Shown here in pieces: positions 42,863-59,783 of a stretch of DNA of 64,000 bases. The position numbers and the translations under genes are program-made. Numbering within the stretch: position 1 is the first letter of the stretch; each line of letters opens with the position of its first letter. The stretch covers positions 23,738-87,737 of IMG/VR virus record IMGVR_UViG_3300031240_000002; one strand, written 5' to 3'. The notes below the pieces were generated by a model. That model made no database searches and was not told where the DNA came from. It saw only the letters and a program-made list of their open reading frames with translations. Origin of the DNA: a virus.

Positions 42863-43615
42863 TCACCGCCTGCTGAAGTTCCGACCCTTGAACGGCGTCG
42901 ACCGCTTGGGCGCCCACTTCGAGGCGGCATCGCGGCAGATCCAGGCGGCCATGACGACGTCGGTGCTGGTCCCCTTCGGGTAGTTCACGAACTCGTCGCG
43001 GAACCTGCACCAATCGCAGGCGCACGCCGGCGGGTGCCCCTCGAACTCCCCGCCCGGGATGATCCACCCCTCGTTGAAGAACTCGACCTCCAGCGCCGGC
43101 AGACCCACGTCGGGGTCCGTCTTGTTCGAGCCGGTGGTGAACGACTCGATCTTCATCCAGAAGTCGTACTTGCTCTCCTTCACCCAATCGATCAGCGCCT
43201 GCTGGTACCCGTTGTTCTCGACCTGGATGAAGCGGACGTCGTGGTTCTGCACCACCTCGGCCAGGTTGCGGGCCGTGTCGGGGGACGTCCAATGGCCGCA
43301 GCGGATCTCGACCGGGCAGCGGCGAAGGTTGGCGTCGAGCCCCAGCGCGAAGATCGCGTTGCCCTTCCGCTTCTTCCCCGCGAGGTCCACCCCCACGTAC
43401 ACCGGCATGCGGCGCGCGGCGAGCTCGGCGGCCATCAACCCGGTCTGGACGCACTTCTCGAAGCTGGGGAACTTCCGCTCGCCGGGGGTGACGGCCTCAA
43501 GCCGGTACCCGTGGCTGAAGGTGAAGGGATCGCTCTGGACCTCGCGCAGCTTTTCCAAGCTGTGCTTGACCGGCCAGATGGGGATCGCCGGGAGCGGGAT
43601 GCCGAAGTTCGCCAC
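42863..43615 (-). CDS. terL: Large terminase, C-terminal nuclease half
   Basis: IWP..SLEKL.....PFTFSHGY lid/linker; RNase H-fold acidic residues in VGVDLA, IQVENNGYQ and YPKGTSTDVVMA. Confidence 0.85.
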   Translation of the reverse strand: MANFGIPLPAIPIWPVKHSLEKLREVQSDPFTFSHGYRLEAVTPGERKFPSFEKCVQTGLMAAELAARRMPVYVGVDLAGKKRKGNAIFALGLDANLRRCPVEIRCGHWTSPDTARNLAEVVQNHDVRFIQVENNGYQQALIDWVKESKYDFWMKIESFTTGSNKTDPDVGLPALEVEFFNEGWIIPGGEFEGHPPACACDWCRFRDEFVNYPKGTSTDVVMAAWICRDAASKWAPKRSTPFKGRNFSRR

Positions 43616-43618
43616 CGA

Positions 43619-45079
43619 TTAGACCAGCGGCTCCTGGTCTTCGACGGTCGGGTCTTCCGTGCGAAGGGGCAGGACCAGACTCACCGTCGGAACGAGCGCT
43701 GGCGTGGAGAGCGGCGGGACCGGGAGCGTGAGCCCGAAGCCCGGCGCCGCCTGCAGCACGCGGAGGTCGACGAGGCCCCAGTTCACGTTCCGCGCCCAGC
43801 TCGCGACATAGACGTCCTTGCGGATCCCCACGTCGCCAGCGAAGGCGTGGTCGAAGCAGTCGAGCGCCACCAGGACCTGGCAGCCAGCCGGGACGCCGTT
43901 CGCGTGGCCGTCGACCAGGACGTTGCGCACGCGCCCCGCCCGAGCGTCCCAGACCGCCAGCGCCCAGCCAGTCGACGCGCGCGCGACGGCGCGGAAGTCC
44001 GCCCACCAGCCGTCGAAGCCGCCGGGCCCGACTGCGGCGGTGAAGGCGGGCCCAGGGCCAGCGACGCCGGCGCCGCGCGCGAGCCCGCCGAAGAACAGCT
44101 CGTGCAGGACCACCGCGTCGTAAACGGTTGGCGCCCGCCGCAGGAGCGCCTCGGCTGGGTCGGGGCCAGCCTTCACCCCGAGGTACTCGCCGACCGTGTA
44201 GTCGAGCGTCGTGTACGGCACGCGGCGCCCGACCATGGTGTTGACCGGCGGCCCATAGGCCCGTCCCCAGCTCGAGAGGAGCGTCTCCACCGTCTCGAGC
44301 TTCGCCAGCGCGCCGGGCCATTCGGCGTACTCCTCGCGCCAGCGGGAGCCGGGATCGAGCCAGGTCGCGAAGGTCTCGGCCCAGTCCTCGTCCGCGTGCT
44401 TCTGGGCGTAGTGGGCGTTGGCCGCCGAGACCATCCCGTGGAGGTGGCGCACGTAGTCGGTGCTGGTGGGGTCGGGGGTGTACTCGTCGAGGTAGGGGGC
44501 GAAGAAGTCGCCGAAGGTCCGCTTCCAGTAGCCGTCCCGCCAGATCTCGAAGGCGTAGCCGAGCGCGTGACCGACCTCGTGCCGCAGGATCGAGACCACC
44601 TCCTCCCGCGTGTAGCGCTGGTCCTGCTCGTTCACGAGCTCCCAGATCCGATCGCTCGCCAAGTACCAGGGGAGGTTGATCGAGGTCGCCTGGTCGGTCG
44701 TCCAGAAGTCGGGCTCGCCGATGTACCAGAGCGGCCGCCACACGATCCCGCGCGCGGTCAGCTCCCCCTCGACCTGGGCGACCGCCTCCCCGAGCTGGCC
44801 GTCGTTCACGGTGAGCGCCAGATCGCGCACGGGGGAGGCCAGGAGGGCGGCGAGCTCGCCCGATGGGATGGACGGCGGGAAGCGCGTCGGCTGCGCGCGG
44901 GCCGCGTCGAGGGCGGCGAGCTCGGCCACGTAGCCCTGGTAGAGGGTCAGGTGGTCCTGCAACGTTTTGTCGCTCACCCCAACGAGTCCTTGCGCCAGGT
45001 TAGGAAAGCTGAGAGCACCGACAGCGATCGGCTCGATCCTCTTTTTCTTCCCGGTCGTCCATGAACCCGTCCGCGTCAT
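43619..45079 (-). CDS. Fe/Mn superoxide dismutase-like protein with an inserted zinc metallopeptidase (Peptidase_Mx-like)
   Basis: SOD: SDKTLQDHLTLYQGYV, LHELFF, GWA, ALDCFDHAF, NVNW. Peptidase: LRHEVGHA, YAQKHADEDWAETF. Confidence 0.8.
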   Translation of the reverse strand: MTRTGSWTTGKKKRIEPIAVGALSFPNLAQGLVGVSDKTLQDHLTLYQGYVAELAALDAARAQPTRFPPSIPSGELAALLASPVRDLALTVNDGQLGEAVAQVEGELTARGIVWRPLWYIGEPDFWTTDQATSINLPWYLASDRIWELVNEQDQRYTREEVVSILRHEVGHALGYAFEIWRDGYWKRTFGDFFAPYLDEYTPDPTSTDYVRHLHGMVSAANAHYAQKHADEDWAETFATWLDPGSRWREEYAEWPGALAKLETVETLLSSWGRAYGPPVNTMVGRRVPYTTLDYTVGEYLGVKAGPDPAEALLRRAPTVYDAVVLHELFFGGLARGAGVAGPGPAFTAAVGPGGFDGWWADFRAVARASTGWALAVWDARAGRVRNVLVDGHANGVPAGCQVLVALDCFDHAFAGDVGIRKDVYVASWARNVNWGLVDLRVLQAAPGFGLTLPVPPLSTPALVPTVSLVLPLRTEDPTVEDQEPLV

Positions 45080-45777
45080 TCGGTCCTCGCGAAGTCTCCG
45101 TGTAGTTCCTTGGCAGCGACGGCATATGCGCTGGCGGCAACGCCCTTGCTCTCGAACCTCCCGAGTGTGTGGTACTTGCCCGAGGCCACGATCTGGGCGA
45201 CCCATTTGCGGCGCGCGGTGTCCCAGTGAACGCCCTTGACCCCGCTCGTGTTGTCGCTGCGCTTGCGGCAGTTCTGCGCGTTCTGCTCGTCTGAGGCCGG
45301 CCTCAGGTTCAGCCGGCGGCAATTGAGTCCGTCACCGTCGTGATGGTCGAACTCGATCCCGTCGATCGCATATCCCGCGCGTTCCGCGATCACGCGATGA
45401 AGAAGGAAACACGTCTTCTTGCTCGCTCCGCGTGGGCCGCGTTCGATGCTCCGGATCGCGTACCAGGTCTTCTTCCCTCGATGCGCCGCCCAGTTGAACA
45501 GCTGCAGATCGGCGTCGACCAGATCGACCGTCGCGAATAACCCGCGCGTCAATGCGATGCGCACGACATCGCCATCAACGACGGCCTGGCGCTTGACTCC
45601 AGTTTTCAGGCAGCCGCACGACTTCGTATGTCCATTGGTGAGATCGCAGCCACGCCGCACGGTCTCGCGACCGCAGTCGCAGCGACAACGCCATCGACCG
45701 GCGACGCCAGTCCTGGTGAGCACCAGCAACCGGCCAACGCGCTGTCCGGTTCTGTCGATGAATTCCCGTGCGGCCAT
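45076..45777 (-). CDS. HNH-AP2 homing endonuclease
   Basis: WRCRCDCG; LHRVI..DHHDGDGLNCRRLNLR; NTSGVKGVHW..KWVAQI..LGRF..AY AP2 domain. Confidence 0.9.
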   Translation of the reverse strand: MAAREFIDRTGQRVGRLLVLTRTGVAGRWRCRCDCGRETVRRGCDLTNGHTKSCGCLKTGVKRQAVVDGDVVRIALTRGLFATVDLVDADLQLFNWAAHRGKKTWYAIRSIERGPRGASKKTCFLLHRVIAERAGYAIDGIEFDHHDGDGLNCRRLNLRPASDEQNAQNCRKRSDNTSGVKGVHWDTARRKWVAQIVASGKYHTLGRFESKGVAASAYAVAAKELHGDFARTE

Positions 45778-45896
45778 TGCAGGCCCCAGCATAACGCAGG
45801 CGCGGCGCGCGCCCGTTTGTTTCATGACCATCACCCGGCGGCGGCGGATCTCCCGCCGCACCATCCCGGGCGCGCGCCGCCTCCCGCCGCTACAAC

Positions 45897-46124
45897 CTAC
45901 CGTCGCTTGAACAGACGGTCGACGTCCAGCCGCTTCGCCAGTCGCCGGCAGGCGATGCAGTCGACGGCCTTCGTCTCTATCGTCACCGGGTCAGCCGGGG
46001 ACCAGGGGACGCCGCAGGCGGGCTGCATCTGCCGGCCGTCGGAGAGGTGGAGGATGCGGGGGCGGGCGTTGGGGGCGACCGGGGGCGGCGCGGGGCGGAA
46101 GAGGTGGCGCAGCCAGCGGATCAC
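45897..46124 (-). CDS. Small hypothetical protein
   Basis: GTGA overlap; H..ACG...VDCIAC. Confidence 0.45.
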   Translation of the reverse strand: MIRWLRHLFRPAPPPVAPNARPRILHLSDGRQMQPACGVPWSPADPVTIETKAVDCIACRRLAKRLDVDRLFKRR

Positions 46125-46300
46125 CGGTACACACCGTTGCCGTGGCACCGACACGAACATGCCGCGCCAGGCGCTCCGCCGACCTTCAGGTTGCTGCATC
46201 CGACTGGATCCAGCGCGTCACACCAGCATCGCTCCCGCGCGCGCCGCTCGTTCCACTGCTTGCGGATGAGGGCGGCGATCACGGCTGCCGCGACCTCCAT
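46121..46300 (-). CDS. Small Cys-rich protein
   Basis: TGATG overlap; ends CSCRCH. Confidence 0.45.
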   Translation of the reverse strand: MEVAAAVIAALIRKQWNERRARERCWCDALDPVGCSNLKVGGAPGAACSCRCHGNGVYR

Positions 46301-46839
46301 CAGAGGCCGTCCCCGATCGTGGTCCACCCCTCCCGGGGGCGGCGGGCGAAGAGTTCCACGAAGGGGCCGCGCGAGAGGCGCTCGCAGATCTCGCGGTAGA
46401 AAAATTCAGGCTTGGCCGAGTGGATCGGCCGGCCACGTTCATCCATCGGAAGCGACGCGGAGAACCGGCTGCGCACCGACTTGCTCGCCGGCTTCGGCTT
46501 CCCGCGCACGAACAGGATCGCGGTCTCGTGAGCAGCTCGAACGTGCCGTCCCATGCCGAAATGAGGGAGCCCGTTCTTCGTGGTCTTCTCCCAGACCACC
46601 TCGCTCTTGGGGGTGAAGCCCCAGGCGCGCCCGACCCGGTAGCCCTCCTCCACCATCGCCGCCACCCGCCAGAGGAGGAGGTAGCAATCGTCGGCGAGCG
46701 GCGGGAGCTGGACCGCGCAGATCTCCTCGATGGTCATCGTCTTGTAGTTCTTGCCGGCGCCGCGGGACTTGCCGGGGAGCGCGTCGCCGAAGCGCCACGG
46801 CGGGTCGCTCGTGATCAATCGGAACGGCTCAGTCGCCAC
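46300..46839 (-). CDS. MT-A70 family N6-adenine methyltransferase
   Basis: SDPPW, YKTM, LLLW, WGF, WEK, HSAKP, VELFAR..GW. Confidence 0.92.
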   Translation of the reverse strand: MATEPFRLITSDPPWRFGDALPGKSRGAGKNYKTMTIEEICAVQLPPLADDCYLLLWRVAAMVEEGYRVGRAWGFTPKSEVVWEKTTKNGLPHFGMGRHVRAAHETAILFVRGKPKPASKSVRSRFSASLPMDERGRPIHSAKPEFFYREICERLSRGPFVELFARRPREGWTTIGDGL

Positions 46840-47209
46840 TGTCGCACCTGCTCTCGCACTCGTAGACGAAGAACGGGTACTTGTGCGGCTCGTAGGGCTT
46901 CCCGCTGTATTGGTTGATCGCGGGGTCCGCCGTCGGCTTCCCGGTGTTCCGGTCGACCGCGACGCACGCCGATTCCTTCTCTCCCGCTGGCGCCTCTTTC
47001 CCGTCGGCCTGGGACCGGATGTAGAACTCCTGCCCGAACCCCAGGACGCCGGCCTCGTTGAGCGCCTCCAGCTTCTTGACGGAGAGGCGGTGGAGCGAGG
47101 TCACCCGCCAGGTCGTCGAGGAGTAGCAGTTGCCGAGGGAGCCGCCCCCGGTCGTCTCGATGGTGAGGTCGGGCATCGGCTTCGGGTAGGTGAAGCTGAG
47201 GTTGCTCAT
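46829..47209 (-). CDS. Hypothetical protein
   Basis: ATGA overlap, GAGG SD. Confidence 0.6.
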   Translation of the reverse strand: MSNLSFTYPKPMPDLTIETTGGGSLGNCYSSTTWRVTSLHRLSVKKLEALNEAGVLGFGQEFYIRSQADGKEAPAGEKESACVAVDRNTGKPTADPAINQYSGKPYEPHKYPFFVYECESRCDSGD

Positions 47210-47430
47210 GTTCGCGGATCCTCTTCGGGCATCGGGTCGCCTGGGCAGCGCACGTTGGCGTTGATGTCGGGTCGGTAATCGCCGCGAGGCGGACAGGCGT
47301 TGAGCCATCCGGAGGCGGCGATCTCGACGATCTGAACGAACCGCTCTGAGGCCGCCGCGATCCTGCCGAGCGCGATCGCTCCCTGCTCGATCAACGCTTG
47401 CTGGTATGGCGTCAGCTGAAGTTCGCTCAT
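47206..47430 (-). CDS. Hypothetical protein
   Basis: ATGA overlap. Confidence 0.5.
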   Translation of the reverse strand: MSELQLTPYQQALIEQGAIALGRIAAASERFVQIVEIAASGWLNACPPRGDYRPDINANVRCPGDPMPEEDPRT

Positions 47431-47669
47431 TTCGCTCGCTCCATCGCCGCGCGGCCTTCGAGTGCGTCCTCGACCGGATCGCCGAACGCCTCGGCCCACT
47501 CTTCGGGCGTCGTCCCCGAGATCAGGAACTCCCGGTCATCCTGGGACAGCATCGGCGCGACGTCTTGGATGTAGCCGCCGTCCCTCCAGAGGGCCAGCTG
47601 GTCGTCCGAGATGGCGATCTCCCGGGTGTGCTCGACGCCGGTCATCTTCGAGACCTTGGTGATCTTCAC
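47427..47669 (-). CDS. Conserved phage hypothetical protein
   Basis: G.YIQDV.P.LS.DDREFLISG.TPEEW motif, which I recall as widespread in phages. Confidence 0.7.
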   Translation of the reverse strand: MKITKVSKMTGVEHTREIAISDDQLALWRDGGYIQDVAPMLSQDDREFLISGTTPEEWAEAFGDPVEDALEGRAAMERAK

Positions 47670-48349
47670 CGTCCACCTCCGACCGTCACGCCGTCCGTCT
47701 TGGGCGCCACGTCGACCGCCCCCGCCTGCGCCGCCTCCTGGTGGAGCACGTCCAGGCTGGTGGTGGCGGGGGCGTCGTCGTCAGTCCCGGCCACGCCACC
47801 AAGATCCGGCGGCGCGTCGTGCTTGAGCGGGGCGACCGCAATGCTCGCGTACGACGGGGCGAGCGTCCCCACCGTCTCGGGCGGAGCGGCGGGCGGGCGG
47901 GCCGTGGCGCAGCCCGAGGTCATCGAGAGCACCGCGACCACCAGCGCGCAGAGCAGCGACGCGGTCCGCAGCGGCGGGAGCTGCGCGTCCGGGAGGAACG
48001 GCTCGACCTTCGTCGGCTCCGTCTCGTAGGCCGGGGCGTGGCGCGGAACCGCCCCGCGCGCCGCCGCCACCGCGATCTCCGCCTCCGCGCAGCGCGAGCA
48101 GTATGCCGTCTGGTAGTCCTCCTCCCAGCGCGCCGGGGCCTCGCAGCAGAAGCACTCCGTCACGCTGCTGACCACCAGGTTGAGCCAAGCGGCCCGGGGG
48201 TGGCGAATGCCGAAACCGTGGGTGCCGACGATCTCGGCGGCATAGAGGTCCGCCAGGAGGTCGATCATCCACTCGGGCGGTGTCTCGACGAGGGCGCCGA
48301 GGGGGTAGGAGGAAGGGAAGGAAGCCGGGGTCGTTTTGAGGTTGTTCAT
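47666..48349 (-). CDS. Hypothetical protein with a TM / lipobox-like segment
   Basis: CxxC pair, then LLCALVVAVLSMTSGC. Confidence 0.5.
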   Translation of the reverse strand: MNNLKTTPASFPSSYPLGALVETPPEWMIDLLADLYAAEIVGTHGFGIRHPRAAWLNLVVSSVTECFCCEAPARWEEDYQTAYCSRCAEAEIAVAAARGAVPRHAPAYETEPTKVEPFLPDAQLPPLRTASLLCALVVAVLSMTSGCATARPPAAPPETVGTLAPSYASIAVAPLKHDAPPDLGGVAGTDDDAPATTSLDVLHQEAAQAGAVDVAPKTDGVTVGGGR

Positions 48350-48362
48350 GCTTGGGGGGTTG

Positions 48363-48379
48363 TGCATTCTTGGGGCCAG
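48363..48379 (-). promoter_or_regulatory. Putative sigma54 -24/-12 promoter (leftward)
   Basis: CTGG-CCCCAAGAAT-GCA (GG-N10-GC). Confidence 0.55.
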
Positions 48380-48403
48380 GTTCAAGTCCGCGCCGTCTGC
48401 CGA

Positions 48404-48414
48404 GATACTACGCG
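48404..48414 (-). promoter_or_regulatory. CGCGTAGTATC motif copy 8
   Basis: Exact 11-mer; the only copy not directly followed by a start codon. Confidence 0.65.
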
Positions 48415-48519
48415 GGCGGGCTGGGCGCCTGTGAATGCCGGGCACGATTTCCGGCCCACTGTGGCGCTGGCGGCCCGGTCCGGCTGCGTTAAGTCCGGCA
48501 CCCTATCGGCCCTTTGCCG

Positions 48520-48536
48520 CTGGCCCCGGTCGTGCA
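48520..48536 (+). promoter_or_regulatory. Putative sigma54 -24/-12 promoter (rightward)
   Basis: CTGG-CCCCGGTCGT-GCA (GG-N10-GC). Confidence 0.55.
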
Positions 48537-48576
48537 TTTCCTTCGGGTGACCTTCACCACTCCCCAAAGGAACTCC

Positions 48577-49209
48577 ATGCCCACCAAGAACCACCTGCTC
48601 CAAGACACCGTCGCCCGCCCGCTGAGCGCCGGCCACTGGGCCCTCATGAACAAGCAGGAGACCGGCACCTCCAGCTCGGCGATCACCTACAAATCCCTGG
48701 AGGCCATCTGCGCCGCCTGGGACGTGGTGATCGGCGAGAAGGGGGAGGACGAGTACGGGACGTTCGTGCGGGTCCTCCGCGCGACGCCCGCCAACTCGCC
48801 CCGCGTCAGCGCCTACCTGGGTCTGGAGCGGCTCGCCGAGGAGTCTGAGGGCCGAGCGTCCGCCGACCTTCGCGCGCGCATTGATGCCGCGTGGGAGGCG
48901 CTCACCCCAGACGAGGTCAGGTGGATCCGGGCCCGCCAATCCAACGGGGTCGGACCGTTCGAGGATTCCGCCCGCCGCCGCAAGGTGCTCAAGCTGCTGG
49001 CCTTCGTCCCGATGGCGGGGAGCAACGCGGAGAACGAGGTCTGCGCGGATTGGCTCACCCGGATGTCCGTCCCAGAGCGGGCCATCTTCGCCAAGGTGGC
49101 GGGGGCCAATGCGCCGAGTGACGAGACCTGGCGGCAGCTCGTCGAGGCGGTCAAGGCGAGGAAGACGATCGGGGAAGTGGACGAGATCGCAAGGAGGGTG
49201 ATTCGATGA
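48577..49209 (+). CDS. Hypothetical protein
   Basis: AAGGA SD; first gene of a plus-strand operon. Confidence 0.65.
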   Translation: MPTKNHLLQDTVARPLSAGHWALMNKQETGTSSSAITYKSLEAICAAWDVVIGEKGEDEYGTFVRVLRATPANSPRVSAYLGLERLAEESEGRASADLRARIDAAWEALTPDEVRWIRARQSNGVGPFEDSARRRKVLKLLAFVPMAGSNAENEVCADWLTRMSVPERAIFAKVAGANAPSDETWRQLVEAVKARKTIGEVDEIARRVIR

Positions 49210-49778
49210 CCGGACTCGTGTTGGTGTCGGGGCTCACGCGCTCGGGGTCGTCGCTGACCATGCAGATGCTCGCTGCGGGCGGCTGGCCGGTGTTCGACCC
49301 GAAGATCTCGCTCTATCCCGCGTTCGAGCATCCGATCAACCAGGGGCGCGGGCGTCTTCCGAAGGGAGCGACCGGGATCATGAAGTGGCTCGACCCGCAG
49401 GTATTCCACCCGCCGAACGCCATCCGCGGCTCCATCTTCCTCGCCCGAGACCCGAAGCAACAGGCGAAGTCCTTCGTGAAGTTCGGGCAGGCCGTCGGGC
49501 TCCCGATCGACGGCGCGAAGTGGCGCGTGATCGCGAAGTCGTTCGAGAAGGACGCTCCGCGCGCCTGCGCCGTGCTGGCGGCATGCGGACCGGTCCTGCG
49601 GCTCATGTTCGAGGACCTGATCGGCGACACCGGCGCTGCGCTCGACAGGATCGCCGAGTTCGTCGGTGAACCGCTCGACATCGACGCGGCGTTGAGGGAG
49701 AAGCGCCAACGCGAGACCGGCTCCGACGTGCTGCCGTACATGCTCGAAGAACGGCTAATCATGGAGTCACGCCCATGA
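49206..49778 (+). CDS. Sulfotransferase-family P-loop protein
   Basis: VSGLTRSGSSLTMQML PAPS-binding loop; FLARDP; FEDLI. Confidence 0.75.
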   Translation: MTGLVLVSGLTRSGSSLTMQMLAAGGWPVFDPKISLYPAFEHPINQGRGRLPKGATGIMKWLDPQVFHPPNAIRGSIFLARDPKQQAKSFVKFGQAVGLPIDGAKWRVIAKSFEKDAPRACAVLAACGPVLRLMFEDLIGDTGAALDRIAEFVGEPLDIDAALREKRQRETGSDVLPYMLEERLIMESRP

Positions 49779-50047
49779 TCTCCCCCTGGGTCCTAGAGCT
49801 CGGCCACGCCCACCACCGCGCGTTCGTCTCTCCCATGATCGGAACCCGCGCCCCCTACCGACTGCAGATGATCCACCCCAACGGGGAGATGAGCGTCTTC
49901 GTTGGGCTGGCGACGATGGAGCGGGTGGTCGAGTCGCTCTGCACGCGCGTCGCTTCCTGCGGCGAACACGTCCCGACAGACGTGCGCGCCGAATGGGTGG
50001 CGCTGGCCCACAAGTACGACGAGCCCGACGTCCGCTACGTGCAGTAG
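49775..50047 (+). CDS. Hypothetical protein
   Basis: ATGA overlap. Confidence 0.5.
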   Translation: MISPWVLELGHAHHRAFVSPMIGTRAPYRLQMIHPNGEMSVFVGLATMERVVESLCTRVASCGEHVPTDVRAEWVALAHKYDEPDVRYVQ

Positions 50048-50051
50048 GCGG

Positions 50052-50699
50052 TCAGGTCTTCTTCCGCCGGAACCGATCGGCCTCGACGCACGTAGCGAAG
50101 TGCGAGAGGAACATCAGCGGGAAGCTCCCCCGCTCGGCGTAGAGGGCGACGCCATCGTGGTCGATCACGATGTTGCCGTCGGGGTGCTCCACCGTGTCGA
50201 GCGGGATGTTCTTCCCGTCCGCGCTCCTGAACCACTCGATCGGCGCCTCGCACCCCTTGCACTTGCCGGCGGCTCCCGCTGGGCGGGTCTTCGCGATCCA
50301 CTTGTCGACCTCGACGGTCTGCCGCACGCCGACGCACCTGCTGCTCCGATCGGGAGGATTCCGGGCGAAGGTCACGGCGCCGTCGGTCACCCCTAGAACC
50401 CAGAGGCGAAACCCCGTCTCGATGTGGATCCGAACGTCGCCGCGCTCCGGCTGGCGCTGCCGAGCGTCCACCAGCCGGGCGTGGGGCGGGCAGTAGTCGG
50501 TGGCGTCGTCCTTCTGGACGCGGCAGCCGGTGCAGAGCTTCGCGCTGCAGGTGGTCCGCTTCCCCTTGCGGGTGACCGGGTAGTCGCAGAGCGCCTCGAC
50601 CAGCTTCCCGCAGTTGGGCGTCATGCACTTCGAGCGGCGCTGGCGGCCGGTGCAGACCATCCCGGTGACCGTGGAGGTCTTCAGCGGGTAGCAGGCCAT
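50052..50699 (-). CDS. Cys-rich multi Zn-finger hypothetical protein
   Basis: LCDYP..TCSAKLC..C..DYCPPH; CKGCEAPIEW..GK.IPLD..SHFATC. Confidence 0.65.
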   Translation of the reverse strand: MACYPLKTSTVTGMVCTGRQRRSKCMTPNCGKLVEALCDYPVTRKGKRTTCSAKLCTGCRVQKDDATDYCPPHARLVDARQRQPERGDVRIHIETGFRLWVLGVTDGAVTFARNPPDRSSRCVGVRQTVEVDKWIAKTRPAGAAGKCKGCEAPIEWFRSADGKNIPLDTVEHPDGNIVIDHDGVALYAERGSFPLMFLSHFATCVEADRFRRKKT

Positions 50700-50902
50700 C
50701 AGACCGGCGCCTCCTCGTCCTCGAGTGTCGCGACCACCGTGAACTCGTCCTCGATCAGCTTCCGCGTCATCGTGAGGTGGCGGCCCCAGATCACCGCCAC
50801 CACGGTCGGTCCACCGCTGTCGAGCACCAGGATCGTGTGGCCGCCCAGCTGGCCCATCCGCCTGGTGGCGAGGACCCGGAGGACCGGGCGACCGTCAGCC
50901 AC
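50699..50902 (-). CDS. Hypothetical protein
   Basis: Part of an overlapping operon chain. Confidence 0.5.
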   Translation of the reverse strand: MADGRPVLRVLATRRMGQLGGHTILVLDSGGPTVVAVIWGRHLTMTRKLIEDEFTVVATLEDEEAPV

Positions 50903-51182
50903 GGTCGGCCTCGAACTTCCGGATCGCCTTCAGCGCCGCCTGCGCGTAGCGGAAGATGTCGTGGATCCGGGTGTACTCGCCGTCGGTCCTCGGCTTCTCG
51001 ATCCCCTGGTAGGCGCACGCCTCGGCCACCACCGCGTCTCGGATCGCGACCAGCAGGAGCGGGTCCTCCTCGCTGTCGGTCTCCGGGTTCCCGGGACAGC
51101 CGCGCGTGTGGCACCTGGCCGGTGCTGGGTCTCCCGGGCCGATCCACTTCCCGGAGGCGCAGAACTCGCAGCGCTCAGCCAC
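50895..51182 (-). CDS. Hypothetical protein
   Basis: Part of an overlapping operon chain. Confidence 0.5.
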   Translation of the reverse strand: MAERCEFCASGKWIGPGDPAPARCHTRGCPGNPETDSEEDPLLLVAIRDAVVAEACAYQGIEKPRTDGEYTRIHDIFRYAQAALKAIRKFEADRG

Positions 51183-51474: not shown

Positions 51475-51748
51475 CGATCCCTCCCTCCACGCGCCGCCGC
51501 GCGTCCTGCCCGAAGCGGAACTCGATCGCCGCGAGGATCAGCTCCTCCGTCCCTGCGGCCATGGCGAAGGTCACCCCCACCCGGGGGATGTCGACCACCA
51601 CCTGGCCGGTCTCTGGAACGACGCCCCAGGTCGAGCGGACGAGGGGGAAGCCCGCGCGCAGCGCCAGCCAGCAGGCGTAGGCCCGGTCTCGGCGGGACAT
51701 CCGGTCGACGCCGGCGCGCTTCTCTGGATCGGGAGGGCTCGTGTCCAT
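51467..51748 (-). CDS. Hypothetical protein
   Basis: TAATG overlap. Confidence 0.5.
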   Translation of the reverse strand: MDTSPPDPEKRAGVDRMSRRDRAYACWLALRAGFPLVRSTWGVVPETGQVVVDIPRVGVTFAMAAGTEELILAAIEFRFGQDARRRVEGGIGG

Positions 51749-52089
51749 TACGGGTTGAGCCTCAGCCAGTCGGCGAACTGGCCGAAGAGGTCGAAGACCG
51801 GCAGGCCGCGCGCCTTCGCGTGCTCGCGTTCCGCCTTCGCCCCGACCGAATACTCCCAGCCCGAGACCATGAGCACGGCGTCGCAGCGTTCGAGGAGCGC
51901 CAGCGTCCCGAGCAGCCAGAACTCGTCGGTCAGCGTCCCGTCGAAGAACCGCGTCATCGTGTGGGGGATGAGCGGCATCGCCCCCGACTGGGCGACCTGG
52001 AAGCCCCGCAGCTCCGCCTCGCGGATGTTCTGTTCGACCGCCCAGGAATTCGGACCCCGGAACTTCCCCGCGATATAAACGATCTTCAT
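51748..52089 (-). CDS. DUF4406/DUF1937-like nucleoside deoxyribosyltransferase-fold protein
   Basis: VYIAG.F..PH..CDAVL...GWEYS.GA..E...A...GLPVF. Confidence 0.8.
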   Translation of the reverse strand: MKIVYIAGKFRGPNSWAVEQNIREAELRGFQVAQSGAMPLIPHTMTRFFDGTLTDEFWLLGTLALLERCDAVLMVSGWEYSVGAKAEREHAKARGLPVFDLFGQFADWLRLNP

Positions 52090-52096
52090 CCCCGCC

Positions 52097-52107
52097 GATA
52101 CTACGCG
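52097..52107 (-). promoter_or_regulatory. CGCGTAGTATC motif copy 9
   Basis: Exact 11-mer; TAGTAT ends 8 nt before ATG 52089. Confidence 0.7.
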
Positions 52108-52117
52108 GGGAGGGCGA

Positions 52118-52795
52118 CTACCCGGCGGGGGGCGGTTCTTTGCGCGCCCGGACCGCGGCGGCCTCGGCCTCGATGCGCTCGGCTTCCTTGGCGGCAGCCT
52201 CGTCCTTGGCCTTCTGCTCGGCTTCGGCCTTCGCCTTGTCGGCAGCCTCGCGCTCCGCCTCCTCGCGTACCAGGCGGTCCTGGCGTGCGTTGAGGGCGTC
52301 GATGAGCATGAGGGGGAAGAGCTGCATCGCCTGGTCGACGTCGGCCACCAGCGCCTCCGTCAGCTTGGCCAGCGGCCCGCGGGCGAGGACCACGGGCGAC
52401 GCCGGGCCCTCCGTGGCGAGCACCAGGGGGCCATGTTCCGCGAAGCCGGCCACCCGGGTCACCGACCCGTCTGTCGCGTCACCGGCGAAGGCGTAGGCCA
52501 CAACGGCGCGAACGCCGACGTGGGTCGTGACCGTCAGGACCTCTGAGAGCACCGGGGCGTCGATCGGCTGGACGGCGCGGCCCATCGGAAGGAACCCGGG
52601 GACGTGGCCGTGGGTCACCAACTCGACCCCCTGCTTCCCGGAGATGCTCTTGAGGGGCCCCTGCCAGTGCGGGTAGACGTCGTTCACGAACGCCTCGGCG
52701 AACGGCTTGCGCGCGAGCTCCGCGGCGCGAGCGGCAGCGCCGGCGACGGCCTCGGGGGTGCCTGCGGTTCTCTTCGCGAACTCGTCGAACGACAT
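52118..52795 (-). CDS. Hypothetical protein with a C-terminal coiled coil
   Basis: GAGGAG SD. Confidence 0.6.
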   Translation of the reverse strand: MSFDEFAKRTAGTPEAVAGAAARAAELARKPFAEAFVNDVYPHWQGPLKSISGKQGVELVTHGHVPGFLPMGRAVQPIDAPVLSEVLTVTTHVGVRAVVAYAFAGDATDGSVTRVAGFAEHGPLVLATEGPASPVVLARGPLAKLTEALVADVDQAMQLFPLMLIDALNARQDRLVREEAEREAADKAKAEAEQKAKDEAAAKEAERIEAEAAAVRARKEPPPAG

Positions 52796-52807
52796 GGGCG
52801 ATCTCCT

Positions 52808-53047
52808 CTACGGGTGTCCGACGTCGAGCATCTGCTGGCGTGCTTCGGGCGTCAACGGTTCCACGTCGGACGCCGGCACCAGCGTCACCCGATCGGTCCC
52901 GTCGACCTCGACCTCGGCCAACGTGGGCGCCCCGCCGGTCCGGCTCAGACGGCCGACGAGGTGAGCCCTCACCCTGACGCGGGCGGTCCCGAGAGAGACC
53001 AGGGCGCTCACCGGGGAGCGACGGATCTGGATCAGCGGGAGGCTCAC
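52808..53047 (-). CDS. Hypothetical protein
   Basis: GTGA overlap. Confidence 0.5.
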   Translation of the reverse strand: MSLPLIQIRRSPVSALVSLGTARVRVRAHLVGRLSRTGGAPTLAEVEVDGTDRVTLVPASDVEPLTPEARQQMLDVGHP

Positions 53048-53181
53048 CGCTTGCCGCCGAGGTCCCGCTTGATGTTCTCGCGGGCCTTCCGGTTGCGCCG
53101 CCAGTCGTCGACCACCACCAGGACCACGACCACGAAGGCGGAGCCAGCGAGGAAGGCGTAGAGGTAGCCCATGGGGCTCAC
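53044..53181 (-). CDS. Small single-TM protein
   Basis: MSPMGYLYAFLAGSAFVVVVLVVVDDWRR; overlaps neighbours on both sides. Confidence 0.5.
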   Translation of the reverse strand: MSPMGYLYAFLAGSAFVVVVLVVVDDWRRNRKARENIKRDLGGKR

Positions 53182-53528
53182 CGGCCGTGCGGGTGGGGAG
53201 CGCCGGTCTGCGGCGCCGTGCCGAGGAGCGCCGGGTCGCAGCTATCCATTGCCGCGCAGCTGGGCGCGGCGGCGACGCAGTCGGAGAACCGCTGGTCGTT
53301 CACGCTCAGGCAGATGCCCAGGAAGCCCCCCTGACTGGCGCATCCGAGCTGCGCGCGGTGGTTGGTCGCCGCAGTGCAATTGACCGGTCCCGGTGGCGGA
53401 GCGGCATCACTGGCGTCGGGCGGATTCACCACCGGCGGCATGGGGGGCTTCGGGCACCCGGTGAGGTGGGCCCCGAGGGCGACCGTCAGGACGATCGCCG
53501 CCAGGGCATGCTGCCAGCGCCGGTCCAT
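53178..53528 (-). CDS. Cys-rich lipoprotein
   Basis: Signal peptide ending LTGC; Pro-rich linker; 6 further Cys. Confidence 0.7.
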   Translation of the reverse strand: MDRRWQHALAAIVLTVALGAHLTGCPKPPMPPVVNPPDASDAAPPPGPVNCTAATNHRAQLGCASQGGFLGICLSVNDQRFSDCVAAAPSCAAMDSCDPALLGTAPQTGAPHPHGR

Positions 53529-54817
53529 CAGGTCGCCGTCGGCGGGTCGGTGGGCGGTTGCTGTTCCGGTTGCTCCGCCGGGCGCCGCGGGCGCAGGAGC
53601 ACGTCGCAGATCTCGCTCACTCCCTGGACGAACTCGCCCAGCCACTTGGCCGAGAACGTCACCACGGAGCCCTTGCCGCTCAACAGGAGGCGCAGCTGGA
53701 CGTGCGCATCGGTCGGGTCTTCGTCCGGTGCCGACAGGATGGTCACGCCGAGCTCGTCGCCCGCGTCGTTGACCGCCGTGACCGACCCGACACCGGCCTT
53801 CTCGTTGACGTTCTTTGTCACCGTGAGCGCGTGGTCCTCGTCAGTGCCCGTCCCCTCGCGGAGGCGGTGCTCCTTCTCGCGCCGCGCCTGCTGGGCGGCA
53901 GCCGCGGTGGCGGGGTTCGAGCTCGACGCCGGGTTGGTGACCTGGTTCAGGTCCGCCTCGAGCGTCGCGAGGTCGAACTTGCTGGGGGCCTCCCCCGAGG
54001 AACACCAGTCGTCCGAGAGACAGGCGTAGCTCTCATCGCAGTAGGCGTTCCAGAACGCCCACGACATCTTGTAGACCTCGCCCCAGCTGATGAAGTAGAC
54101 CCAGTTCTGGTCGTAGCCGAGCACCCAGACGGCGTGCCCGCCCCAGCTTCCGGGCTCAAGGCTTCCCTCGTCGCCGCCGGCTGGGATCGTCCAGGTGGTC
54201 CCCTGGTTCTCGGCGAATGCCGGGAGGGCGAGGCCGATGTAGCACCCGCCGAAGAGAAAGACCGACTGCTGGACGTGGGTGCGGTCCTTCGGCTCGAGCG
54301 CGACGAACGCGCGGATCTTCCGCCCGGCCATGCCGGTTTTGCGCCAGTAGTTCAGGACGTCGAGCTCGACGCCCCCTTGGTCGGTGCTCGGGTCGGCCGG
54401 GTTGTAGCCCGTCGATCCCGAGTAGAAGGCGACGACATCGGCGTCGGTGACCGTGAACTCGGACCCGTTGTTCGCGGTCCAGTCCTGCTCGGCGTGGCCG
54501 ACGGCGGCGCCGGTACAGTCGCCGAGCTCGTCGTTCTTCATCATCCCCCAGCGCGGGGTGGCAGCCTTGGTCCAGTCGACCGAGACCGGCGGCGGCGGCA
54601 GCGAGGTCGGCAGGTAGCGCCGCAGCATGAGCGTGCGCGGGTCATGCCGGACCGGCTTCTTCCCCATGCAGCGGCGCCGCGCCGGCGGCGGGAAAGTCGG
54701 CGTCCCGTCGTTGCCCGGCGGCGGATCGGACGGCACCGGCGGATCGGTGATCTGCGGCATGTCACCCCCGATCGGCTCGATCGGTCCGGACCCTTCCGTC
54801 TGTTCCTCGGTGCTCAT
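53528..54817 (-). CDS. Papain-like (C1-related) cysteine peptidase
   Basis: SVDW..NDELGDC; GGHAV..LGYD....ISWG. Confidence 0.8.
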   Translation of the reverse strand: MSTEEQTEGSGPIEPIGGDMPQITDPPVPSDPPPGNDGTPTFPPPARRRCMGKKPVRHDPRTLMLRRYLPTSLPPPPVSVDWTKAATPRWGMMKNDELGDCTGAAVGHAEQDWTANNGSEFTVTDADVVAFYSGSTGYNPADPSTDQGGVELDVLNYWRKTGMAGRKIRAFVALEPKDRTHVQQSVFLFGGCYIGLALPAFAENQGTTWTIPAGGDEGSLEPGSWGGHAVWVLGYDQNWVYFISWGEVYKMSWAFWNAYCDESYACLSDDWCSSGEAPSKFDLATLEADLNQVTNPASSSNPATAAAAQQARREKEHRLREGTGTDEDHALTVTKNVNEKAGVGSVTAVNDAGDELGVTILSAPDEDPTDAHVQLRLLLSGKGSVVTFSAKWLGEFVQGVSEICDVLLRPRRPAEQPEQQPPTDPPTAT

Positions 54818-55020
54818 CGATTCGTCTCCTTGCTGATCAACTCGACACCGCACGAGACGGCATCCAACGCCCACTCTTTCTTGCCGTCCAGTAGGTCGGC
54901 GGCAGCAGTCGCCACGATCGCGTTCGTCACGCGAATGGTCGCTCGACCAGCGCTGACGACGTGCGGCGCCGCCATCAGGGCAAGCGCCGCGAGAGCGAAC
55001 GAAGCGTAGAGGCGGGTCAC
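54814..55020 (-). CDS. Small membrane/secreted protein
   Basis: N-terminal hydrophobic helix; GTGA overlap. Confidence 0.45.
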   Translation of the reverse strand: MTRLYASFALAALALMAAPHVVSAGRATIRVTNAIVATAAADLLDGKKEWALDAVSCGVELISKETNR

Positions 55021-55670
55021 CTCGAGGCGACCCACCGAAGCTGGCCGTCGACCTTGCGCTGGCAGAGACAGCCGCTCGGAGGCGCGAGGCTGTTCGCGCT
55101 CCCGCAGACGACATCGCAGGACGCCAAGGTCGGATTCGCCGGGGAGGCCGAGTGCTTCTCCCCCGGCGCGACACCCGCTGCAGGCGGGGCCGACGCGCTT
55201 CCCTCACGAGGATCAACGGCAAGAGCGGCTCGTTCGTCCGCAGCATCCCCGCTCGCGCGGGCAACGCCTCCCCCCTCGGCTTTGGAAATCTTTTCGAGCG
55301 TCGGGCAGCGCAGCGAGACCGGCCCGCGCGCCTCGGCCGCCTTCATCTCCTTCGCGTGCCCGACCTTGAACTTCGTCGCCGCGGCGCCGATGGTCCCGCC
55401 CTGGGTCTCGAAGTAGTTCACGAGGCAGGGGATCCCGCCCCCGACGTCGTTGGCCAGCATCGCCAGGAGGTCGGTCTCCCCCGCAAGGTTGCCGTCCACG
55501 ATCTCGACGAGGTCGCCGAAGACCTCCGTCGCCGCAGCCCAGGTGACGTCCGAGGCACCGCACGATTTCAGCGCGGGCCAGATGTCCCCGGGGAACTTGC
55601 CGGCGCAGCCTGGCGCAGCGAGCGAGACGGTCAGTAGGGCGAACAGGGCGGGCATCAATAGGCGTTTCAT
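55017..55670 (-). CDS. Lipoprotein
   Basis: [22 protein letters not shown]. Confidence 0.7.
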
Positions 55671-55879
55671 CGAGATCCTCCATCGGGCTTCTTGGCCATC
55701 TGAGACGGGTTGTCCCCGTTGTCGTTCGGGAACGGCGCGCACGAGGGGTTCTGATTCGACGCGCACTCGCAGCTGTTCGGGTCCTGACAGGGCTTCTGGA
55801 TGAACGAGCAGCCCCCGAGCGCCATCGCGAGCAGCACCCCCAGCGTTGCCAGGTAGGCCAGCGGGTGGTTGCGCTCCAT
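55667..55879 (-). CDS. Small Cys-rich lipoprotein
   Basis: LLAMALGGC lipobox; TATCCT-N7-ATG. Confidence 0.7.
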
Positions 55880-55926
55880 GACGGCGAGGATAGGCGCGGC
55901 CGCAGGCGGTACGCAAGGGGAGAGCG

Positions 55927-57834
55927 TCAGCCGATGGCCGAGGCCAGCGGGGATTCGTCGTCGTGGTCGATGAACTCGACGTCCTCCGCGATCTTCTTCG
56001 CCGCCCGGTTCCGACCGGCCCCGGTCTCGATCTGCCTCACGCGCTCCCGCGTTAGATTAACCAGCGCACCGACCTCTTCGAGCGTATGCCCGCCGCGATC
56101 TGCGACATCGTTCGAGCAGGTCTCCTTCATCTCCCAGACCTCGAGATGGGGAAAGTTCAGCTTGATCGCCCCGGTTTCCTCGTTCACGTCGAGGAAGAGG
56201 TGCGCCTTGCACCGAACCCAGGGGCAGGGACGCCCGGGGTCAGCCTGGCATTCCCCTCGGGTTAGCGGCATCTCAAGATCTTCGGGCACCTCGAGCAGCT
56301 CTCCCGCCCGCCGCTCCTTGACCGTCAGGCGGTACGGCGACTTCATCGTGCGCGATCGGTGCCGGTCCTTGATGTCGGATACCTTCACCAAGCGCTCCGG
56401 CTCGGGCTCCGGTGGCGGGGGAGGTGGCGGGGGCGGCTCCGGCTGGCCCGGGACCATTTCGGCGATCGCGTCCAGGTCCGCTGGGTCCCAGGTGGGCCGC
56501 TCGATCTCCGGCGCGATCGGCGCCTCCACAATCGGCAGCGGCGCGCGCGGCGGCGGCGCGGCCGACAGCCCGAGACGCACGCACGCGGCGGCGATGTCCT
56601 GCAAGCGCGCGGCGGCGATGTCGCTCTCGTCGAGCGGGCAGGTGGTGACCCGGTGGCCAGGTTGACCGCAACGCCGGCAGCGCCCGCGTCCGCGCCCAAC
56701 CCCGGTGCTCCTGGACGGGCGGGGTTGGGCAACGGCGGGCGGTGCTTCTTCAGCGATCTCGGGCTCTTCGCGGTGCTCCTGGGTAACGGTGGGCGGCTTT
56801 GGGGAAAAGTCCGCCGCTCTCTTCCCGTCGAAGCGGTGTCGCCGGCCGTCGTGATCGGTGGCGCCGCAGACCCTGCATGGACGCCGCGCGGGCGGGAGCG
56901 ACTGTTCCTCTTTTTCGACCCCGATCGCGGCCGGCGGGCGCAGCGATGGCAGCACCGGCGCTGGCGTTGGGCGCCTCTCCTCCGCCGCACGCAGCTCCGT
57001 GGTCGCCCACTCCATCAGCTGGTAGACGTCGAAGCGCTTGATCTGCAGGTCCCCGGCGATCGCCCCTGGGTCGTAGCCCTGCGCGACCAGCAGCGCGACG
57101 GAGCGGGCGCGCGGAGCGAGCGCGGGAAAGTACACGGCCAGGCGTCGGAATTCGGCGATGCGCGCCTCGTGCGCCGGGTTGGGCTCGGCTGGCGGAATGG
57201 TTTCGGAATATTTTTCCGCTGTTTTGACCACCTCACCGTCGGCGGCGGCGTCCGGAATAATCGCGACAGAGGGGCAGGTCCGCCGATCGTGCCCGAGCTC
57301 GCCGCAGACCTTGCAGCGCCTGGGGCCGCGCTTCCGCGCAGTATCAGAGCCGTGAACCTCTGGGCGAAGGTCCGGCTCTGTCGCGGGTGCAAGACTGCGC
57401 CCCTCGACGTCTTCGGCGACGCCCCCTGCTGCCTCCACCTCCCGCCCTGCTGGGTCGCCTTCTGCTGGGGCTGCGGGCGGATCTGGTGGCGCGGGAGGTG
57501 CGCTCGGGACCTCTGTGACGACATGGGGCTCGTCCGGGAGCGGCGCCTCGTCCAGCACCGGCCCCAGATCGCTCTCACCCGGCGGGCCTGATTTATTACC
57601 AGCAGCTGGTCGTAATTGCGCGGAGCGGCGCGGGCGGGCGGGAGACCGGGGCGGCTTCACATATACCTTTGCCCGCCTTTTCGCCCGATTCTTATATGTG
57701 CGCCGACCGCGAGGAGCCCTCGCCGGTGGCTTCGGTTTCTTCGCCTTCGGCTTGGCGCGCTGGCGCCGCTCGCCGAATACCGCGTTCAGCGCGGCCCGGA
57801 TCTGCTCGGCGATCGAAGGAGGCTTCTTCGCCAT
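55927..57834 (-). CDS. Multi-domain transcription regulator: Zn knuckles, HTH and Cys-rich sigma70 region-4 domain
   Basis: [42 protein letters not shown]; [18 protein letters not shown]; [37 protein letters not shown]. Confidence 0.8.
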
Positions 57835-57941
57835 GGCTGGATCATCCTACGTGAACGGGCGGCGGTCGTGACAGACAGATCGCGTCCCGGCCGGGCGGCC
57901 TCTCCCCTCGCGCGCCCAGCCGGGACCCTGGTTGGGGTGGT

Positions 57942-58499
57942 CTAACCGGGCGCGCCGGCTCCGTCGTGTTCGTCGTCGACCTCGGGCTCGGGAACTGCCA
58001 CCGGCGGTTCCTTCTTTTCCTTCGCGTGCGGGACGCTCTTCAGCGTCGGCGGTTTTTTGCGCGCCTCGGAGATCGCCTCGCCCGGCGTCGGCGGGCGCTT
58101 GTCGCCCTTCGGAAGCGTCGGTAGCTCCGGGCTCCGGTCGGCGTCCGTCATGGTCCGCGCCTCGACCACCGCGCGTGTGTCGATCCGCATGATTCGGATC
58201 TCTCGGCGGGCATAGTCGCGCTCCTCGACGCACGGGACCTCGCGCTCCTCGGTCTGGCTCTTCACGTCCTCGTGAAGCTGCCGGCTCTCCGCCTGCAGCT
58301 CGCGGACCCGCGTCTTGTATGGCTCCATCTTCTCCTGCTCGACCAGGATCTCCTCGTCGATGTCGAAGCAGCGGTCCCGCTTCTCCTGGGTCCGCTTGGC
58401 GTTGATCGGGACCGGCAGCATGCGCTTGAAGCGCTCGCCGACCTCGATGTTGCCGCCCTGCTTGGTTTTCCCATTCTTGGGTGGTGTTCCTTTGGCCAT
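57942..58499 (-). CDS. Hypothetical coiled-coil protein
   Basis: AGGAG SD; R.DT..VVE.R.MT motif. Confidence 0.65.
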   Translation of the reverse strand: MAKGTPPKNGKTKQGGNIEVGERFKRMLPVPINAKRTQEKRDRCFDIDEEILVEQEKMEPYKTRVRELQAESRQLHEDVKSQTEEREVPCVEERDYARREIRIMRIDTRAVVEARTMTDADRSPELPTLPKGDKRPPTPGEAISEARKKPPTLKSVPHAKEKKEPPVAVPEPEVDDEHDGAGAPG

Positions 58500-58502
58500 T
58501 TC

Positions 58503-58865
58503 TCAGCTCCTCTCCTTGGTGGTCTTCTCTTCGAGCTTCTCGCGGATCTTCTCACCGAACTTCCGGACGATGAGCTTTCCGATCTCCTCCCCGGCGTTGA
58601 TCAGCTGACGCTGGTGCGCGGACGGTGGTAGGTCCTTGGTGATGTGCACGAAGGCGCCGTAGTGGAGATAGACACCGGCGATGTCGCCCGGGATCACTCC
58701 CGCCTCTTCGGTCCGTTTCTCCACCGCCTGGGCGGTGGTCACGGTCTCGATCAGCGACTGGCCCACCAGCTGCCCCAGCGCCTTGTCGTTCACGCTCTCG
58801 AAGAAGGGGCAGACCTTGCGGACCTCGGTGATCAGCTCCTGGACGTCGTAGGGGTCAACCTTCAT
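58503..58865 (-). CDS. Hypothetical protein
   Basis: ATG 8 nt after motif copy 10. Confidence 0.65.
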   Translation of the reverse strand: MKVDPYDVQELITEVRKVCPFFESVNDKALGQLVGQSLIETVTTAQAVEKRTEEAGVIPGDIAGVYLHYGAFVHITKDLPPSAHQRQLINAGEEIGKLIVRKFGEKIREKLEEKTTKERS

Positions 58866-58872
58866 GGGCGCA

Positions 58873-58883
58873 GATACTACGCG
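58873..58883 (-). promoter_or_regulatory. CGCGTAGTATC motif copy 10
   Basis: Exact 11-mer, 13 nt downstream of the terminase ATPase stop. Confidence 0.7.
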
Positions 58884-58896
58884 GGTCCGGGGCGCG

Positions 58897-59739
58897 TCAG
58901 GCGGCCATTCTCGCGCCGATGCTGTCGATAAAGTCGGCGAAGAGCTCGGCGTAGTCGGAGCCGGCGCCGAAGACCTCCTGCTCGTAGGCCCCGAGGTCCG
59001 GCACTCGCACCCGCTGGACCAGGGTCACCCAGTTTGGGTCGTTCTTGAGGTCGGCCGAGAAGTCGTCCTGGGCCCACGGGGTGGCGAAGGCCATCGCGCG
59101 CGCGGCGTCGCCGTCGAGGCGGGAGAGCCAGGTGCCGCGCCCAAACTTCGTGATCTTGTGGCGGTTCGCCTCCTGCTCGCTGTTCTTCTGGGTGCAGACG
59201 TCGTCGAAGAGCACCACGTCCGCGCGACCGCCGATGCCCTCGGTGAGCACCCCCCGAGCGTGGAGGGTCGGATCGACGGCGTTGCCCTCTCGAGCGACGA
59301 ACGCCTCCGTCGTGTCCCACTTCTGGCCGGGCCGGACGTGGGGGAACACCGATCGGTATTCGTACGACTCGATCATGCTCTTGACCGCCGCCAGGCGGAG
59401 CTTCGCGTTGCCGTCGCCGGCGCAGACGATCTTGATCCGGTTCTGGACGTTCTGGCCGATGAGGAAGGCCGCGATCGGGATGGCGAGCGAGCTCGTCTTT
59501 CCAGAGTTGAAGGGCGCCATGATCATCGCGTGCTTCCCCCGGCTCCAGGCGTAATTGACGTGCCAGATCCAGCAGCGGTGGAGGAAGTGGAGCTGGATCC
59601 GGTTGCCGTCCTCGTCCCGCCCGCAGAGCTCGATGAAGTCGGCCAAACTCTCCCGCGCCCGAAGGACCGATAGCCGATAGGCGGCGCGGGCCTGGTTGAC
59701 GAGGATCTGGTGGCGTTGGGCGACGGCGGCGGAGCGCAT
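58897..59739 (-). CDS. terL: Large terminase, N-terminal ATPase half
   Basis: Walker A IMAPFNSGKT; YRSVFP; GGRADVVLFDD Walker B; LSRL; coupling motif ATPW..DD; stops at 280 aa with no nuclease domain. Confidence 0.9.
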   Translation of the reverse strand: MRSAAVAQRHQILVNQARAAYRLSVLRARESLADFIELCGRDEDGNRIQLHFLHRCWIWHVNYAWSRGKHAMIMAPFNSGKTSSLAIPIAAFLIGQNVQNRIKIVCAGDGNAKLRLAAVKSMIESYEYRSVFPHVRPGQKWDTTEAFVAREGNAVDPTLHARGVLTEGIGGRADVVLFDDVCTQKNSEQEANRHKITKFGRGTWLSRLDGDAARAMAFATPWAQDDFSADLKNDPNWVTLVQRVRVPDLGAYEQEVFGAGSDYAELFADFIDSIGARMAA

Positions 59740-59776: not shown

Positions 59777-59783
59777 GCCGTCG

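Follow-up and report, generated by a model that had tools for sequence, protein, structure and literature searches.

We analyzed a window of 64,000 nt, the right-hand 64 kb (positions 23,738 to 87,737) of the IMG/VR virus record IMGVR_UViG_3300031240_000002, a linear contig of 87,737 bp from an uncultured soil phage. In this window the large terminase (TerL) is encoded by two separate genes, one for the ATPase half and one for the nuclease half, with a gap of 15,281 nt between them. Both genes are intact, conserved in relatives and correctly assembled, the halves diverge together across related phages, and no other terminase and no intein or intron was found in the searches of this genome described below. 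The best explanation for these observations, which we hold to be very probable, is a two-chain terminase that arose by gene fission and whose chains reassemble non-covalently to form a functional packaging enzyme. That the halves associate physically and package DNA is what we infer from the evidence presented here. The two genes are:

58897..59739, minus strand: ATPase half of TerL, 280 amino acids (aa), encoded independently from an ATG start to a TGA stop; identified by translation, the phrog_38 profile and fold
42863..43615, minus strand: nuclease half of TerL, 250 aa, likewise encoded independently, with GTG as start codon and a stop of its own; identified by translation, the phrog_38 profile and fold

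Two terminase genes in one assembled genome

A sequence-only reading of this stretch had assigned the two halves to these open reading frames (ORFs) on the basis of their motifs, and both the ORFs and the motifs were confirmed: the ATPase half carries Walker A APFNSGKT, Walker B VLFDD and the coupling motif ATPW, and the nuclease half carries IWP, VGVD, VENN and TDVVMA. In a hidden Markov model search, the ATPase half matched columns 252-471 of the PHROG TerL profile phrog_38 (760 columns) with an expectation value (E) of 2e-24, and the nuclease half matched columns 483-700 with an E of 2e-14; both matches were repeated on the DNA. Because adjoining columns of a single profile were matched, the halves are complementary and non-overlapping, which agrees with the earlier description of them as complementary and non-redundant. 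Pfam gave barely any signal in either half. The NCBIfam profile for T7-type TerL, NF033889, matched the ATPase half with an E of 5e-14 and 51.9 bits, under its curated cut-off of 150 bits, and gave no match to the nuclease half, such that neither half scores above the equivalog cut-off.

The ATPase half contains all the elements of the ASCE ATPase of a TerL (i.e., Walker A, Walker B, an arginine finger and the coupling motif), and residues G80/K81 of Walker A, arginine R162, D179/D180 of Walker B and W222 are invariant in 24 homologues. The nuclease half contains the RNase H-like nuclease, and its acidic catalytic triad of D77, E133 and D219 is invariant in 16 homologues. The two domains do not share one polypeptide, as they do in an ordinary TerL, either in this genome or in many of its relatives. 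What distinguishes a naturally two-gene TerL, namely a separate conserved ORF per domain in the lineage and no rejoining element, was observed here. Additionally, the ratios of non-synonymous to synonymous substitutions (dN/dS) relative to a phage of ~80% identity were 0.056 (ATPase half) and 0.18 (nuclease half), values that indicate purifying and not relaxed selection on both halves.

The contig is linear, was assembled from a metagenome and lacks terminal repeats, an observation that favors regarding the halves as an assembly artefact, or as remnants of a broken terL in a phage that is packaged by another enzyme or with a helper phage. We consider this extremely improbable. The region 42000..60500 was tiled colinearly and with zero mismatches by Logan contigs from four rhizosphere metagenome runs, and all four gene ends were bridged in contigs of these runs (e.g., X10 42000-50390, X12 55674-60371 and X14 57732-60500). 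Two independent IMG/VR contigs of one relative (~80-87% nucleotide identity) were also colinear with 61352..48572 and 45871..38557, and the junctions, at which the sequence-only reading had considered a mis-assembly, were accordingly bridged both in the four runs and in a relative. Searches with six TerL profiles (PF03354, PF03237, PF04466, PF05876, PF20441 and phrog_38) found no other terminase in the genome, which was rated 100% complete by CheckV; no second full-length terL is therefore present, each half is single-copy, and phrog_38 matches these two places only. The remnant interpretation is further contradicted by the purifying selection, by the invariant catalytic residues and by the maintenance of the split across dozens of clusters at 50% identity, as presented in the next section.

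Joints that had been reported in the contig mapping were rejected as spurious, since every joint side was <=27 nt at 90% likeness and none was located at a gene boundary. As a separate observation, in three of the four runs the contigs differ from the window by a 1-nt insertion at 60043 and a 1-nt deletion at 60113, a pair that amounts to a compensated frame change across ~23 codons between strains.

The split across related phages

A protein search returned 25 stand-alone ATPase homologues of 263-284 aa, with identities down to 44%, whereas the nearest fused full-length proteins were only 30-35% identical to the ATPase half. The nearest longer proteins (668 aa) were ATPase halves with a LAGLIDADG intein and not fusions. 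An ATPase profile built from 24 halves (A1) was then searched against 1.84 billion representatives of clusters at 50% identity, which yielded 8,814 matches at E <=1e-3 and 554 at E <=1e-30. The best 150 representatives comprised 66 plain stand-alone halves, 58 fused forms and 26 proteins with an insert or extension and no nuclease domain, most of the latter interrupted near Walker A in an intein-like manner; at least ~90 of these best 150 clusters are of the split type. In the fused forms, a median of ~10 residues separates the stretch matched by the ATPase-half profile from that matched by the nuclease-half profile, and because the profiles abut in this way the cut is clean, with nothing lost or duplicated. 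Interruptions near Walker A were also seen in the ATPase halves of several relatives (L015, L027 and L048, as well as P0032 and P0033, in the last two of which the insert is an intein with a LAGLIDADG endonuclease, PF14528 and PF14890), and in further representatives an insert was found at profile position ~106, ~172 or ~220.

The sequence-only reading had suggested looking for the same split in related contigs, and it was found in many of them. Among 24 IMG/VR loci identified with the ATPase profile, the frame stops soon past the ATPase region in 19 and is fused in 5. In 8 longer IMG/VR records the halves are separate ORFs on one strand, and the following arrangements were observed across relatives:

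Stop/start overlap (GTGA): L017, L005 and L020
14-nt gap between the halves: L019
1.5-1.8 kb gap: L021 and L014
5.3 kb gap: L012
10.5-16.9 kb gap: seven of the longer records; 15.3 kb in this window
Adjacent halves in permuted order (567-aa gene, nuclease half, helix-turn-helix (HTH) gene with a 256-aa ORF, ATPase half, portal): the eighth longer record, G006 (L011), 6019-10723

The GTGA overlap is the usual arrangement for translational coupling. No homologue of the HTH ORF located between the halves of G006 was found in this phage. The graded series from fused to adjacent, separated and permuted forms constitutes a rare direct record of an essential virus gene undergoing fission and then relocation.

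The earlier picture of one insert cutting a gene proved too simple in view of these arrangements, as the place of the ATPase gene varies around the nuclease gene and the 567-aa gene that neighbors it. In relatives the ATPase gene is found directly before the nuclease gene, past it, or 1.5-17 kb upstream. In L036-L039, L041, L011 and L005, a homologue of the 567-aa ORF (38-58% identity) is located upstream of the nuclease half; the gene is upstream of the ATPase gene in L005 and downstream of it here. Because the side of the 567-aa gene differs, the ATPase gene has moved relative to a stable backbone, as opposed to a single insertion into a gene, and its variable place points to fission and then relocation.

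In a tree of the ATPase region, 17 split rows formed one clade (support 90/96), and one fused form was sister to a split one. The two halves co-diverge in 14 genomes (r 0.88; Mantel 0/2000). Judged from these sequence comparisons, the split is old and widespread.

The inteins found inside the ATPase half of some relatives lend some support to a different outcome, in which a split intein, a trans-splicing RNA or excision of the intervening DNA restores a single chain. This is very improbable for several reasons. The intein/Hint domains of Pfam are absent from both halves, the lengths of which leave no room for one, and no splicing blocks were found at the break, where both termini align to the ordinary TerL of fused relatives. 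Rfam gave no match in 42000..60500 at E up to 0.1, nor in the whole window at gathering thresholds, and the interval in which a group I or II intron would place its ribozyme, between co-transcribed exons, includes plus-strand genes. The empty Pfam and Rfam searches agree with the earlier description of the halves as intact and free of intein and intron signatures. An excisable element would be expected to bring a recombinase, att-like repeats and a joined form of the DNA; no recombinase was detected among the intervening-block ORFs scanned, the longest word shared by the boundaries was 10 nt, which is within chance, with no att-like repeat, and no credible joined contig was detected in the four runs. 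The permuted order in one relative and the stop/start overlap in adjacent relatives also speak against rejoining.

Predicted fit of the two chains

The AlphaFold2 model of the ATPase half had a predicted local distance difference test score (pLDDT) of 92.9, and its residues 14-280 aligned to residues 2-251 of PhiV-1 TerL (8dgc_E) with a Z score of 21.3 and a root-mean-square deviation (rmsd) of 3.3 over 232 aligned residues. The ATPase-half profile also matched 4BIJ (E 8e-10). The model of the nuclease half was confident only from about residue 45. Its residues 44-232 aligned to G20c TerL 255-441 (Z 16.9, rmsd 2.6, 164 aligned), residues 45-237 to T4 gp17 360-561 (Z 15.5), and residues 39-244 to PhiV-1 TerL 293-539 (Z 14.4); the nuclease-half profile had no match among PDB sequences, and the likeness came from the fold search. 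These fold alignments map the break against a full-length TerL: it falls at about PhiV-1 residue 251/252, some 40 residues ahead of the RNase H fold. The part of the nuclease half that precedes the fold is:

43490..43615, minus strand: N-terminal arm, residues 1-42 of the nuclease half, which carries the conserved motifs P-x-W and RGF/HGY, has low pLDDT when modeled alone and is a predicted tether to the ATPase half

The counterpart of the arm in PhiV-1 TerL is residues ~252-292, ahead of the nuclease fold. When the two halves were predicted as a pair, the interface score ipSAE was 0.88, compared with 0.16 for the best of three controls; of 80 solved complexes, 58 attained the mark used for this score, as did 2 of 110 mismatched pairs. 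At least 88% of contacts were shared between runs of the complex, with a partner pLDDT of at least 78. The whole predicted interface is formed by arm residues 3-42, which touch ATPase residues 51-56, 74-80, 184 and 220-278, with the arm pairing with ATPase strand 251-257 and contacting the Walker A loop at 74-80. What such a prediction indicates is the likeness of the pair to an intact TerL and not the binding of two chains.

Altogether, these observations suggest how a two-chain terminase could operate. The terL of this lineage would have been split by fission ~40 residues before the RNase H fold, and its two products would be translated separately and rejoin without a covalent link. The ATPase half would supply the complete ASCE motor core, and the nuclease half the D-E-D triad together with the 40-residue arm. 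In the predicted structure the arm adds a strand beside ATPase residues 251-257 and reaches the Walker A loop, by which it may replace the lost covalent link. Past the fission the genes would have become independent, the nuclease gene being kept in the head cluster and the ATPase gene coming to lie 15 kb upstream. The proposal of the sequence-only reading that the packaging motor is built from two polypeptides is well supported by the relatives, the purifying selection, the lack of a second terL and of an intein or intron, and the predicted binding.

Some points weigh against a two-chain terminase. The score of the predicted complex may reflect memory of solved full-length TerL structures, and the support for both halves being made and binding comes from sequence and predicted structures. 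Additionally, no small terminase was identified, and the reading frame of the nuclease half of G006 is broken once, by a frameshift near residue 36 that may stem from decay or from an error in sequencing.

It is also conceivable, although quite unlikely, that both halves are functional and form no stable complex. The ATPase half alone would then act as the motor ring on the portal, in the manner of phi29 gp16, and the nuclease would be recruited separately (e.g., by a small terminase or the portal) for cutting only. The phi29 motor does work without an active nuclease domain, the order and spacing of the halves vary freely in relatives, and the two genes, 15 kb apart, probably belong to different transcription units because promoter-like motifs lie between them. 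Set against this, the conserved arm, which has no fold of its own, makes up the whole predicted interface, the GTGA-overlap forms suggest equimolar synthesis, and the halves co-diverge tightly.

If a two-chain terminase did arise by fission, the change could have been an anti-defence adaptation and not a neutral accident, with the timing or ratio of motor and cutter being tuned and Avs-type sensors being escaped. The latter idea derives from the fact that these sensors grip the ATPase and nuclease domains of T7-type TerL together (PDB 8DGC). Such an adaptive origin seems rather unlikely to us.

Neighboring genes and known terminases

The sequence-only reading had counted about 25 accessory genes between the halves, some on the opposite strand. 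Gene calls based on G+C content at third codon positions (GC3) lowered the count to 23 ORFs, and the presence of opposite-strand genes was upheld, three of the ORFs being on the plus strand. The block and the features discussed below are:

43619..58865, both strands: block between the halves, 23 ORFs by gene calls, mostly encoding hypothetical proteins
43619..45322, minus strand: 567-aa ORF that ends 3 nt before the nuclease start and matches Pfam Sod_Fe_C, the C-terminal domain of Fe/Mn superoxide dismutases (E 1e-9), and, weakly, a zinc peptidase
46300..46839, minus strand: MT-A70 family DNA methyltransferase (domain match), common to L039, L041 and L016
51748..52089, minus strand: nucleoside 2-deoxyribosyltransferase-like gene (domain match)
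55927..57834, minus strand: 635-aa ORF with matches to a CCHC zinc knuckle and to sigma70 region 4
58873..58883, minus strand: promoter-like motif CGCGTAGTATC (exact match), 13 nt past the ATPase stop; the ATG of the gene that follows (58503..58865) comes 7 nt later
37765..39543, minus strand: portal gene (phrog_64 portal, E 6e-7), followed on the same strand by head morphogenesis, major capsid, sheath and baseplate genes

The 635-aa ORF may encode a phage transcription factor. The motif CGCGTAGTATC had been noted earlier at its position past the ATPase stop, which was confirmed, and had been taken to show that the insert begins with a motif-driven cassette, a view that was not supported. The window contains 11 exact copies (4916-59776), 10 of them on the minus strand, and in 10 of the 11 copies an ATG or GTG is found 6-8 nt downstream. 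Judged by this placement just before start codons, the motif looks like a genome-wide -10-type promoter for leaderless messages, and the copy past the ATPase stop simply heads the next gene and does not mark an insert boundary.

Nearly all genes in the window are on the minus strand, the G+C content of the contig is ~69%, and no tRNA genes were found within the window. The nuclease half is found where terL usually lies, ahead of the head genes, and the ATPase half, 15 kb upstream, heads the leftward gene block. On the 3' side of the nuclease half a ParB-methyltransferase fusion is followed by portal, head-morphogenesis, major capsid, sheath, tape-measure and baseplate genes, and the presence of head, sheath, tape-measure and baseplate genes identifies the phage as myovirus-like. 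The fusion itself (40994-42625, minus strand), directly downstream of the nuclease half, joins a ParB-like N-terminal domain to a DNA methyltransferase, and in L037 and L039 the ParB-like part sits between the terminase halves.

One 88-kb contig, with an ATPase half of 62% identity, had been assigned to a Myxococcales metagenome-assembled genome (MAG), which is a weak hint of a Myxococcales host. Relatives were found in MAGs labeled Myxococcales, Planctomycetota, Krumholzibacteriia and Gemmatimonadales, and the G+C content of split-type contigs ranges from 38% to 71%. A search of INPHARED showed the clade to be without an isolated phage, the matches being ordinary fused TerLs of <=29% identity. 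The SIO1-like terminase is full length.

These findings bear on how terminases are modeled and detected. In current models of force generation (T4, P74-26 and HK97) the ATPase and nuclease domains make up a single linker-joined chain, and a conserved natural two-chain terminase would be a ready-made test of what the covalent link contributes. Phage detection, completeness estimates and phylogeny also use TerL as their standard marker, and a sizeable uncultured clade with half-length or distant TerL genes will be mis-annotated or dropped.

T7-type TerL (T7 gp19; PhiV-1 TerL, 8DGC chain E; NF033889) is the best structure and sequence relative of the ATPase half, with the same ATPase motifs and the same RNase H fold. 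It is, however, one chain of ~586 aa, in contrast to the two genes 15 kb apart observed here, and the present genome is an 88-kb myovirus-like one and not that of a T7-like podovirus.

Herpesvirus UL15 is spliced into one mRNA and yields one protein. The coding DNA of pUL15 is likewise separated by several kb containing other genes, and its nuclease fold is homologous (4iox, Z 15.5); unlike UL15, each half here has its own start and stop.

In other phages, terL occurs in pieces through group I introns in the Jug phages (PMC12880540), as three coding sequences in Staphylococcus phage Twort (PMC13729910), and through split inteins in so-called 'fractured genes' (PMC2677866). Intron- or intein-interrupted terL resembles the present case in being in pieces, and some relatives here carry P-loop inteins in the ATPase half. 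In those systems, however, the pieces are rejoined and the insert is a short selfish element, whereas here 23 ordinary genes on both strands intervene, the break shows neither ribozyme nor intein and one relative carries the halves in permuted order.

The isolated and viable Parabacteroides phage phiPDS1 is reported to carry the two TerL domains in two coding sequences, for which its authors suspected an alternative code or an assembly problem (PMC10773633). That split was mentioned in passing, without distant separation, conservation analysis or mechanism, and its likeness to this clade is by description only. Apart from this remark, the literature searched held no description of conserved, distantly separated TerL ATPase and nuclease genes. 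Two candidate precedents were rejected, as the 'split' in Bacillus phage 0305phi8-36 refers to other genes and to lineage splits (PMC2147016), and the 'separate polypeptides' in a jumbo-phage review refer to RNA polymerase (PMC7824862).

The gp16 protein of phi29 has a vestigial nuclease domain (PMC7672431) and is thus a motor without a covalently attached active nuclease, whereas here the nuclease is intact, is encoded by a separate gene and has an invariant triad. Furthermore, phi29 packages protein-primed DNA of unit length, for which cutting is not needed. In comparison with the known terminases, what appears to be new in this phage and its relatives, as judged from their gene order, is the unusually large separation of the halves together with the clear sign that the two genes move independently.

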